Shown: piece by piece, positions 39,001-42,000 of the stretch
How the letters are laid out: each line of letters begins with the position of its first letter
Position numbering within the stretch: position 1 is the first letter of the stretch
From: a phage
Strand: one strand, 5' to 3'
Sequence record: OZ365185.1
Length of the DNA stretch: 47,066 nucleotides
Program-made: the position numbers

Positions 39001-42000
39001 TAAATCCGTGCGCCTTACGCACATTTCGTAATGGTGATTGCATATAACCTCCACATATTGCGTGATAAGCATATTATTTCACGCAAATATTTTGCGCAAG
39101 TTGATTTGCTTAACGCGCAATAAAGAAATGTAATAAACGCATGAACATAGGAAATCGAGTCAGACAACTTCGCCAGGCGAAGAACATGAAAATCGCCGAT
39201 CTCGCTGAAGCAATAGGAGTGGATGCGGCGAATATCTCACGCCTGGAAACAGGTAAGCAGAAACAATTCACTGAACAAGCCCTGAGTAATATTGCCAGGA
39301 GCTTAGGTGTTGATATTGCAGATCTCTTTACCTCAGACTTCAAAAGTAATACTGTATGTAAAAACAGTACTGGTGAGGATGTTGCGCAGGTGAAGGATGT
39401 ATTCCGTATTGAAATGCTGGATGTCAGTGCCAGTGCGGGAAATGGCCTTATCCAGGGCGGTGATGTCATTGATGTGATTCATGCCATTGAATACATAACT
39501 GATAATGCTGTATCGATGTTTGGAGGACGACCAGCCAATCACATTAAAGTTATCAACGTTCGTGGGGACAGTATGTGTCCAACCATTGAGCCAGGAGATC
39601 TCATCTTCGTTGATATCAGTATCAATCAGTTTGATGGGGATGGTATCTATGTGTTTGGTTTTGATGATAAAATTTATGTCAAACGACTGCAAATGATACC
39701 TGACAAACTACTGGTGATTTCTGATAACCAGATTTACCGTGAATGGGGAATTACCAGCGAAAACGAACACCGGTTTATGGTCTTTGGGAAGGTCTTAATC
39801 AGTCAGTCACAAACCCTTAAGCGACACAATTAACCCCGACCTCCTCATCAATTAGCCACCAGAAGGTGGCTTTTCATCACCCATCATATTGCGCATCTCG
39901 CAACAAAACACTTGCATAATGCGCAATTTCATTTTATCTTTCTTTCCAGACCAACAAACAAGGTCCTAACAAAATTTGGTTGTAACACGGCGTATGGCAC
40001 ATGCGTCGTTAGCGGTCTGGGGACGTTAAAGGGGACAATCCACTCCTTGCTCGGGCAAACAAACCAGGTAGCCGGAATGTGCAAGTCAATGAGGATGCTG
40101 ATAAGACGCCTAACCAGCGTGGCGATTCGGTTTGACGCCTGGGAAGAGACCAGGACGCAACGATGAGAGCATTGATGAGCAAGGCATAAGTGCTGGTTCA
40201 ATTCCAGACAGTCCCATTCAGATGGGAGGGTTGGGCAGGGAAAAGGTCCGTTCGATTCGGACACCGGCAATGCTCTCAGCGTTGTGGTGAATGCGCAGGC
40301 TGATGCGCGAAAGACATTGCAGCTATTGCGGAAAAGAGCTGTTCGGCGGGGCAATCAAACGCCCGTGAGAGTCTGAAATAACCGCAAGCCGGAGATCAGC
40401 ACCGGTCACCACAACAGCCACTGCTTTGGCAGTACCAGTTTGTACACTTGCTTCCGGCTGGTACCGCTCTTTTTACAAAACAGAGAAGAGCATCACCGGA
40501 CGACGGGCTCATAACCCAATCCATCCGGGCGGCTGCCACCGCAGGTGTTCTTCTCTGTTTTGTGGAGAAACCAACCGACCTTGCAGGGTCGATATGATGA
40601 GGAGCAACAAAATGGCTAGCGAACGCAGTACTGATGTGCAGGCATTTATCGGGGAGCTGGACGGCGGCGTATTTGAAACCAAAATCGGCGCTGTTCTCAG
40701 TGAAGTCGCTTCCGGTGTGATGAATACGAAAACCAAAGGTAAGGTCTCGCTCAACCTGGAAATCGAACCATTTGATGAGAACCGTGTGAAAATCAAACAC
40801 AAACTCTCATATGTTCGCCCGACTAACCGCGGGAAAATTTCCGAAGAAGACACCACCGAAACTCCGATGTATGTCAATCGCGGTGGTCGCCTGACTATTC
40901 TGCAGGAAGACCAGGGACAATTACTGACTCTTGCCGGTGAACCTGACGGAAAACTCCGCGCAGCAGGTCATTAATATCGTTCTTAATTAACTGATTATTT
41001 ATCTCATCACTGAATATCTTTATATAGTGAGGACTTATTATGTCTCAGAACTTAGACGCAACCGCAATTAATCAAATCCATGCCCTTATTTCTGCTCAGG
41101 GTGTTAATGAAATTATCAGTAAGATTGGTGCCGATGCTGTGGCATTGCCTGAGAATTTCCGCATTCATGATCTGGAAAAATTTAATTTAAATCGCTTCCG
41201 TTTCCGTGGTGCGCTTTCCACTGCCAGCATCGATGACTTTACCCGTTATTCTAAAGATCTTGCAGATGAAGGCACCCGCTGCTTTATCGATGCTGATAAT
41301 ATGCGTGCCGTCAGTGTGCTTAACCTGGGTACTATTGATGAACCAGGTCACGCAGATAACACCGCCACTCTCAAACTGAAAAAGACAGCACCGTTCTCTG
41401 CTCTGTTGTCTGTTAATGGCGAGCGTAACTCCCAGAAATCACTGGCAGAATGGATTGAAGACTGGGCCGACTACCTTGTGGGCTTTGATGCGAATGGTGA
41501 CGCCATTCAGGCAACAAAAGCGGCTGCGGCAGTCCGTAAAATCACGATTGAAGCAAACCAGACCGCTGATTTTGAAGATAATGACTTCAGCGGCAAACGC
41601 TCCCTGATGGAGTCTGTCGAAGCGAAGACCAAAGACATTATGCCAGTGGCATTTGAATTTAAATGCGTTCCGTTTGAAGGTCTGAAAGAACGTCCGTTTA
41701 AATTACGCCTCAGCATTATCACTGGCGATCGTCCTGTACTGGTTCTGCGCATTATTCAGCTGGAAGCGGTGCAGGAAGAAATGGCTAACGAATTTCGTGA
41801 TCTGCTTGTTGAGAAATTCAAAGACAGCAAAGTAGAAACCTTTATTGGTACTTTCACCGCCTGATTTCATTACTGCAAATGCCCCTGCGGGGGCATTTAT
41901 GGAAACGTAATTAACTCAATAATCACCGGATGGTGAGGGCTTCCTTTTACCAGAATTCAGCGCGGTGCAGCGCATATACGTGGAGAACAAAATGTCATTT

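Follow-up and report, generated by a model that had tools for sequence, protein, structure and literature searches.

The DNA analysed here (record OZ365185.1, 47,066 nucleotides (nt), referred to as the window) is 100% identical to the Shiga toxin (Stx) phage Escherichia phage 1720a-02 (KF030445), whose coordinates minus 181 give those of the window. Between the end of its repressor gene and the start codon of yfdP, the first early-left gene, lies a gap of 778 nt, which was found to consist of four co-oriented, conserved structured-RNA modules (A to D) placed between the leftward promoter pL and the early-left protein genes. A terminator-like hairpin and a long inverted repeat had been flagged in this leader by an earlier note on the same DNA. 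What that note overlooked is that the terminator forms the 3′ end of sRNA-17, a small RNA (sRNA) already published, and that the leader is built of four conserved RNA modules common to unrelated phages. The identity of the leader parts is secure. One interpretation of these data, preferred tentatively and at a little under an even chance, is that the leaky terminator of the sRNA attenuates transcription from pL, and that the long stem beyond it is an RNase III-type processing element in the 5′ untranslated region (UTR) of yfdP.

Conservation of the gap extends to 2663 of the 5426 complete E. coli genomes, about half of them, and to many phages. In a large group of lambdoid prophages without N, including Stx2a, Stx2c and cdt phages, SfV, ST64B and phiNP, the place of lambda N and nutL is taken by an array of portable structured RNAs with a conserved terminator, and this raises the question of how early-left expression, with recombination and excision functions further down, escapes a built-in terminator. 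The published ‘virulence sRNA’ is recast as a phage early-leader cassette tentatively linked to the STnc100/PasD scaffold family, and at least three candidate RNA families new to Rfam are proposed, namely module A, the core of the sRNA-17 family and the yfdP-leader junction. While sRNA-17 itself has been published, Rfam has no entry for the junction, for module A or for the array architecture, and no description of them was found in the literature searched.

The terminator and the junction before yfdP

The hairpin and T-run proposed by the earlier note were borne out as a genuine intrinsic terminator at 40428–40474 (+ strand), in which a hairpin at 40428–40468 is followed by UCUUUUU. The assignment rests on the fold, on conservation and on the 3′ end of sRNA-17 at 40473, the published end at the U-tract having been mapped by 3′ rapid amplification of cDNA ends (RACE). 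A GC-rich hairpin followed by five to eight T residues was present in 20 of 20 diverse homologues, with stems that differ and covary, and the T-run was kept in 143 of 144 distinct contexts. The window copy has a folding energy of −15 kcal/mol and an A.C mismatch in the stem, which is lacking in most relatives and which distinguishes the window copy of sRNA-17 from the published one; the terminator of an SfV-type leader (locus L005) is stronger, at −23.1 kcal/mol. A simple terminator scan missed the window terminator because its loop is longer than 8 nt. With a 15-nt loop and a C-interrupted U-tract, the terminator looks suboptimal. Its upstream side was found to be interchangeable, with breakpoints at 40399–40427 and four classes of upstream RNA. 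A riboswitch or attenuator with an upstream sensor was considered and is unlikely, since the upstream sequence is interchangeable and the junction is transcribed after the termination decision.

Module D (40470–40611, + strand) comprises a three-way junction, a small hairpin and a Shine–Dalgarno sequence. The long inverted repeat is real, and the 16-nt arms first reported are the core of 25-nt arms at 40475–40499 and 40539–40563; the 55-nt loop they were said to enclose is not open, its interior being made up of two hairpins. In the fold, helix P1 has 25 continuous base pairs (bp) between 40470–40494 and 40544–40568, and its 5′ strand takes in the terminator U-tract, which pairs with GGAGAA. 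Hairpin P2 occupies 40496–40528, with the tip GGGCUCAUAACCC at 40505–40517, and hairpin P3 occupies 40529–40542. The junction folds at −51 kcal/mol (z = −7.8), none of 200 shuffled sequences folded as well, and the combination of terminator and inverted repeat is far beyond chance. Between the junction and the ribosome-binding site a small hairpin of 6 bp with a 4-nt loop was found at 40576–40591, followed by the Shine–Dalgarno sequence GAGGAG at 40599–40604, all on the + strand.

Folding and covariance analysis across relatives, as the earlier note had suggested, showed that the junction stem covaries in 48 non-redundant homologues and that the junction is a functional RNA element. Ten of its 34 pairs were compensatory in these 48 variants, and RNAalifold applied to 20 genus-level loci gave compensatory changes at 14 of 42 predicted pairs, a total that includes four pairs of the small hairpin. 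The latter covaries across genera, with CCGACC/GGGUCG here versus stems of the CGGCGG/CCGCCG type. The RNAalifold structure replaced a first, hand-drawn structure of module D that was out of register. The conserved unit, then, is terminator, junction, small hairpin and Shine–Dalgarno sequence, and it was present in 20 genus-level yfdP loci from genera including Mangrovibacter, Enterobacter, Kosakonia, Phytobacter, Klebsiella, Salmonella and Citrobacter. Module D occurred in 144 distinct contexts, with a recognisable yfdP homologue downstream in 116 of them, and is absent from Rfam. The yfdP gene of the E. coli K-12 prophage CPS-53 was considered as a source of transcript and RNase III data and set aside, as it shares just the last 23 nt before the ATG.

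The 13-nt tip of P2 (GGGCUCAUAACCC) reproduces without change the upper part of the E. coli initiator tRNAfMet anticodon arm, the identity covering three G–C pairs and the CUCAUAA loop; the tRNA sequence used for this comparison was confirmed as that of a four-copy tRNA-Met gene. An exact copy of this part of the initiator tRNA within a conserved 5′ UTR is unusual. The GGG/CCC pairs were invariant in the 48 non-redundant copies, and CAU was kept in all variant tips listed but one (CCU). Only the top three of the five stem pairs of the tRNA arm are shared together with the loop, and positions 32, 33, 37 and 38 vary among natural variants, C at 33 and a pyrimidine at 37 being found. Anticodon-arm mimicry within a 5′ UTR has a precedent in the thrS operator, and the P2 hairpin stands ~ 95 nt before the start codon. 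The tip is best described as a resemblance to the tRNAfMet anticodon arm, as judged from sequence, rather than as a proven mimic.

sRNA-17 and the modules upstream of the terminator

Module C (40280–40473, + strand) is sRNA-17, as identified from published primers and probe, from covariation and from a model built from the sRNA-17 family (model R1), which scored 82 bits on the window copy. sRNA-17 is a 193-nt RNA mapped by 5′ and 3′ RACE and by Northern blotting in E. coli K1 RS218, where it lies in an mEp460-like prophage, upstream of yfdP (Sun et al. 2020, PMC7719688). The RACE-derived primers for the full-length sRNA matched the window exactly at 40280–40312 and 40442–40473, and the Northern probe, antisense to the + strand, aligned to 40342–40391 with one mismatch and a score of 48/50. 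These positions place sRNA-17 on the + strand from 40280 to the U-tract at 40473. Sun et al. treat it as a stand-alone, ArcA-controlled, trans-acting sRNA, and do not describe its position in the pL leader, its scaffold family or the terminator and junction unit that it shares.

The module is a cloverleaf-like scaffold with its own intrinsic terminator. Its body (40281–40415) is closed by a P1 helix (40281–40290 with 40406–40415) and contains the hairpin GCGCA-GGCUGA-UGCGC, a hypervariable middle and the hairpin CCGG-AGAUCAGCA-CCGG, after which the terminator follows. The three core helices were 96.9% paired with seven compensatory pairs, a level reached by none of 500 shuffles; its two loops are complementary (GCUGA/UCAGC) but invariant. 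At least 59 distinct variants of the family, of 68–218 nt, were found in IMG/VR (loci L127–L246), and further copies are present in P1, D6, an Ackermannviridae phage and T1-like phages. Their ends and scaffold are invariant, while the middle ranges from 0 to 150 nt and falls into 32 mutually unrelated kinds among the 59 variants; it looks like a specificity or cargo segment. P1 (locus L003) and D6 (L117) each carry two scaffold copies on the ban-operon strand, at 1308–1409 and 1569–1692 of the P1 locus and at 202–347 and 546–670 of the D6 locus. The annotated plp/upl genes lie antisense to the first P1 copy, and their annotation may need review.

In SfV-type leaders (L005 and L119), the slot of sRNA-17 holds an STnc100-like RNA, shared terminator included. 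The Rfam STnc100 model (RF02076) aligned the two slot RNAs end to end at 45.1 and 37.5 bits, respectively, below its gathering score of 47 bits, and model R1 found the L119 and L005 RNAs at E = 2e-5 and 5e-5. STnc100 had no match in 39800–40700, even at E ≤ 10, and model R1 did not find the canonical STnc100 of the window. Since the window leader is unmatched by the Rfam model and the slot RNAs are detected by both models, sRNA-17 is called only a probable relative of STnc100-like RNAs, on sequence and fold comparison, and not a member of the Rfam family. The two have in common a P1 helix that begins ..UGGUGAAU, an initial hairpin, a variable middle and a last hairpin that abuts the 3′ strand of P1 and is followed by an intrinsic terminator; they differ in their internal hairpins and loops and in location, STnc100 being found in the late region and sRNA-17 in the early-left leader. 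The canonical STnc100 sRNA of the window (28425–28637, − strand, 142.7 bits) has the same scaffold plan as sRNA-17; it is located downstream of the stx locus and is followed by a second hairpin and a T/A-run at ~ 28385–28425. STnc100 and PasD are known prophage sRNAs, and Pas sRNAs were found to be Hfq-bound (Zhu, Shabalina, Storz 2026 preprint). Identity of PasB with sRNA-17 was rejected, as PasB sits among structural genes.

Upstream of sRNA-17, the local gene order is that of a lambdoid immunity region: a cro-like gene at 38783–39043 (− strand), an open reading frame (ORF) for an XRE/S24 cI-like repressor at 39141–39833 (+ strand) and, beyond the gap, yfdP (+ strand), with its annotated ATG at 40612–40614, where tblastn homologues also begin, followed by yfdQ, yfdR and others. 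The early-left operon has the same orientation as the repressor gene, in a lambda-like manner, and the gap is therefore the pL leader, as the earlier note had held. A candidate left operator and promoter (OL/pL, 39883–39940, + strand) was read from the sequence, with −35 TTGCAT at 39912–39917, a 17-nt spacer and −10 TATCTT at 39935–39940, set within an inverted repeat (39883–39903 and 39912–39932) that carries TTGCGCA-type operator motifs resembling those between cro and cI. The pL assignment is plausible; a consensus promoter scan did not call it.

The leader as a whole folds better than shuffled sequences (z = −4.2), and BLAST comparison with phages and yfdP loci showed it to be a mosaic of separately travelling pieces whose breakpoints fall at helix edges. 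As portable RNA cassettes, modules A, B and C are also found in tRNA-gene islands of other phages, and leader modules adjoin tRNA genes in six unrelated phages. The Rfam search that had been suggested gave zero matches over the leader, at gathering thresholds and at E ≤ 10. No second copy of any leader segment was found elsewhere in the window, where there were chance matches of 11–13 nt only. Leader length ranges from ~ 780 to 1400 nt: a Shigella prophage with the same repressor (L007) has a 1.4-kb leader (1082–2500 of the locus) with a reverse-oriented ORF of 144 amino acids between pL and module D.

Module A (39974–40157, + strand) is a structured RNA of ~ 180 nt recognised by homology and covariation. 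It is 79% identical to P1 71010–71194, a copy placed directly after trnI and before ban, and it is also present in D6, phiV10, SPN9TCW and the yfdP leaders of Phytobacter and Kosakonia. Copies adjoin tRNA genes in P1, D6, phiV10 and SPN9TCW, epsilon15-like phages included. Several helices covary (for example UA:4/CG:4 and CG:5/GC:3), the motifs GGUAGCCGGAAUGUGCAAG and GGCGAUUCGGU(G/U)UGAC are invariant, and there is no match in Rfam. In a Phytobacter prophage (L020), a real tRNA gene lies in the yfdP leader between modules A and D, at 2222–2300 of the locus.

Module B (40158–40284, + strand), delimited by inverted repeat, fold and alignment, has a closing stem of 17-nt arms (40158–40174 and 40268–40284, 94% complementary) around a 93-nt cargo, and folds at −54.6 kcal/mol (z = −5.4). 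The cargo contains two T-arm-like hairpins, CUGG-UUCAAUU-CCAG at 40193–40207 and GUCCG-UUCGAUU-CGGAC at 40246–40262, with a covarying hairpin between them in an alignment of SPN9TCW, L010 and L118–L120. Recombination breakpoints at 40177 and 40271 show that cargo is swapped while the stem is retained; in mEp460-type leaders the stem is kept around a replacement of ~ 36 nt. In SPN9TCW a real tRNA-Arg begins 4 nt from the position equivalent to the 5′ end of sRNA-17. Within 39800–40700 of the window no tRNA was called by ARAGORN or Rfam RF00005, and only isolated T-arm-like and anticodon-arm-like hairpins were seen. The closing stems of modules B (40158–40174/40268–40284) and D (40476–40494/40544–40563) are related in sequence (CAAC..AGAGCAU / (A/G)UGCUCU..GUUG), and in their 3′ strands they are similar to the AGUGCUCUUUCC-GUUGUGG leader found ahead of family-C RNAs in other phages.

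It could be, though the chance is slim, that the tRNA-like pieces, the P2 tip and the T-arm-like hairpins of module B, are decoys or sensors that are freed by processing of the long stems and act on host factors directed at tRNAs, for instance anticodon nucleases (VapC-type toxins cutting tRNAfMet among them), RNase P or the 30S P site. The 13-nt identity with its three G–C pairs and CUCAUAA loop, the invariance of GGG/CCC and near-constancy of CAU, the canonical form of the T-arm-like hairpins and the company of tRNA genes in six phages are all consistent with this, but the variants break anticodon-loop rules at 33 and 37, the stem has just three of the five pairs, neither region scores with any tRNA model, and descent from a decayed tRNA gene would equally explain the identity. 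Equally speculative is the broader proposal that the yfdP-leader junction and the module B cargo are excised mimics of tRNA parts, which temperate phages would express first from pL to titrate or sense tRNA-directed factors. Were it true, the leader would be an array of counter-defence RNAs and not a region of transcription control, the factors in question being VapC-type anticodon nucleases, other tRNA-cleaving defences, RNase P and the ribosomal P site.

Passage of the terminator

The earlier note had found no N-like ORF in the leader, and this was upheld: there is no annotated or conserved ORF between repressor and yfdP. Neither the GenBank record KF030445 nor the RefSeq PGAP annotation of 99.9% identical DNA has a coding sequence in the gap, every + strand ORF of at least 30 amino acids there starts with TTG or GTG, and five gap ORFs from both strands matched either nothing in PHROGs or ‘unknown function’ families only. 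No reading frame is open across the three-way junction in all 20 diverse homologues, one of which has stops in all six frames. The PHROGs families lying over the non-coding modules (phrog_3651 at E = 1.5e-84, phrog_36251 and phrog_33599; for example over an ORF at 40396–40800 on the − strand) were probably built from spurious gene calls. An N homologue elsewhere in the phage, which the note had named as evidence that would overturn its reading, was looked for and not found: there was no N-type PHROG or protein among ten early ORFs, and the antiterminators listed in the record are of the Q type only. The Stx-phage literature confirms that some Stx phages lack N, and nothing on a leader of this type was found in it. 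A boxA-like UGCUCUUU occurs in the consensus 3′ strand of junction P1 and in the leader preceding family-C RNAs, and this consensus equals the start of the rrn boxA. A second boxA-like string, CGCUCUU, lies within the terminator and is not kept across genera. Both strings sit in paired strands, and no boxB-like hairpin was seen beside boxA on reading the leader sequence. Antitermination of the lambda N/nut kind was rejected, there being no conserved ORF in the gap, no N-type PHROG among the ten early ORFs and no boxA–boxB pair seen on reading the leader.

The put RNA of HK022 is a ~ 70-nt two-stem element present once after pL and once after pR, upstream of the terminators that it suppresses; it binds the zinc-binding domain of the RNA polymerase β′ subunit and acts without protein factors. 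An element of this type had been offered by the earlier note as one explanation of read-through without N. The HK022 putL and putR sequences were extracted from NC_002166 and compared with the leader by Smith–Waterman local alignment, and scored 23 and 15, respectively, against a shuffled-query mean of 17 (standard deviation ~ 2.3, maxima 27–28). There is thus no significant similarity to either site, and in the pR operon none of the leader modules is repeated. The flagged stem (40470–40568) lies downstream of the terminator (40428–40474) and so cannot help polymerase to pass it. With similarity, second copy and position all lacking, a put-like mechanism for this stem is not supported.

A protein-independent cis-antitermination RNA that is put-like in function might instead be sought in module A, the promoter-proximal module, which would modify RNA polymerase so that it passes the sRNA terminator. 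Module A begins ~ 25–30 nt after the inferred pL start, as putL does, it combines several covarying helices with single-stranded motifs that are invariant, its P1 copy stands in the long ban operon just before ban, and no N protein was found. Set against this are the lack of putL/putR similarity and of a copy downstream of pR, and the finding that module A is missing from many yfdP leaders in which the terminator and module D are retained (those of the SfV type, of Mangrovibacter, of Enterobacter and others). In phiV10 and SPN9TCW, moreover, module A precedes a tRNA gene only. This reading is considered very unlikely.

Least probable of all is a separate promoter for the early-left genes beyond the terminator, which would make the upstream RNAs an independent sRNA locus. 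No read-through would then be needed, and the sRNA cassettes are clearly portable. However, a promoter scan, which also missed pL, gave no sigma-70-like site on the + strand in 39100–41100 (there is one at 39050), and thus none between U-tract and ATG, where the earlier note had allowed for a separate promoter. The 137 nt from U-tract to ATG are almost wholly covarying helices, and silence of yfdP in a lysogen is what would be expected of dependence on pL. With a genuine terminator and no promoter-like site beyond it, the view that yfdP and the later genes are reached by read-through only is supported.

Attenuation at a leaky sRNA terminator, followed by RNase III-type processing, is preferred as the simplest account once put-like, riboswitch-type and private-promoter readings are judged unlikely. 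The terminator would end sRNA-17 and insulate the early-left genes in the lysogen; on loss of the repressor, strong transcription from pL would reach yfdP by partial read-through, eased by the suboptimal terminator and, in this phage, further by the A.C mismatch. No dedicated antiterminator would be involved, and the heavy folding of the 650-nt untranslated stretch may also limit Rho loading. The 25-bp P1 helix would serve as a double-strand-specific (RNase III-type) processing or 5′-UTR element, and its processing would separate the sRNA part from the yfdP mRNA, leaving the latter with a hairpin-capped 5′ end. By length alone, its 25 continuous pairs, conserved in the 48 variants, compare with about two turns (at least 20 bp of near-perfect duplex) for RNase III. 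Sub-maximal termination is known at sRNA terminators, and the leaders of lambda N, pnp and metY-nusA are known to carry RNase III hairpins.

Several points weigh against this account. Read-through during induction of 1720a-02 is deduced rather than drawn from transcripts, and cleavage by RNase III is argued from helix length only. The highly conserved P2 tip and an AAUCC bulge, both of which look like a specific recognition surface, are given no role. In the one lysogen studied, RS218, yfdP was essentially silent (~ 0.5 reads), while sRNA-17 was seen on Northern blots (PMC7719688). When the sRNA-17 body was replaced by a chloramphenicol-resistance (CmR) cassette, yfdP rose 2^6.6-fold (~ 95-fold) and yfdR rose too (PMC7719688), which could mean active repression by the sRNA and not passive termination. 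Note, however, that the mutant strain retains the cassette, oriented toward yfdP as far as the primer design indicates; with a cassette left in place and probably reading toward yfdP, the rise does not show regulation by the sRNA.

The same experiment bears on immunity-type riboregulation in the style of P4 CI, N15 CA and P1 C4, in which the leader sRNA would act on its own leader or on the yfdP 5′ UTR to enforce termination or block translation in the lysogen. Expression of sRNA-17 with yfdP silent, the response of yfdP and yfdR to replacement of the sRNA body, the topology of the C4 model seen in a long P1 helix around two hairpins, and a hypervariable middle on an invariant scaffold, as expected of a specificity determinant, all point this way. 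Apart from the cassette, which probably reads into yfdP, the difficulty is that unrelated slot variants (20 sRNA-17-like, 45 STnc100-like and 79 other) precede a near-invariant module D, so that the regulator and its putative target do not covary. Convincing complementarity was not found, an RNAduplex scan across the phage being uninformative because it returned long duplexes with huge loops. Riboregulation of this kind is therefore held to be unlikely, and attenuation by the leaky terminator with processing of P1 is retained as the preferred reading.

Outside the leader, Rfam placed a C4 antisense RNA at 37694–37781 (82 bits) and isrK at 37806–37882 (59 bits), both on the − strand in the early-right operon and within the 5′ part of a mechanically called Rha-family antirepressor ORF (37079–38242). 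The GenBank call of this gene is shorter (37079–37942), and PGAP splits the region into two Rha genes; given these annotations, C4 and isrK may lie upstream of the real antirepressor start. The region resembles a control module of the P1 immI or Gifsy isrK kind. The record also annotates chloramphenicol acetyltransferase and aminoglycoside phosphotransferase genes at ~ 23799–24458 and ~ 28650–29444 of the window, which indicates that the phage is a marked derivative made in the laboratory, with an altered stx2 region.

Comparison with known systems

HK022 resembles the present phage in having a lambdoid early operon without N and a structured RNA downstream of pL. The put element, however, is a 70-nt two-stem RNA upstream of the terminator, while the element here is a 99-nt three-way junction downstream of it. 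The immunity RNAs C4 of P1 and P7, CI of P4 and CA of N15 are likewise small RNAs with a long closing helix and two hairpins that arise from the leader of their own operon, and the neighbours of the leader sRNA suggest tRNA-like processing as for these processed RNAs; the Rfam C4 model does not match the leader, and complementary target sites were not identified. The preferred reading finds its parallels in the lambda N leader and in rpsO-pnp and metY-nusA-infB, where a leaky terminator, a long perfect helix or both stand between an upstream RNA gene or leader and the first ribosome-binding site. Compared with these RNase III leaders, the helix before yfdP is 25 bp long, encloses a conserved two-hairpin cargo and takes in the terminator U-tract with its 5′ strand, and its cleavage is a prediction.

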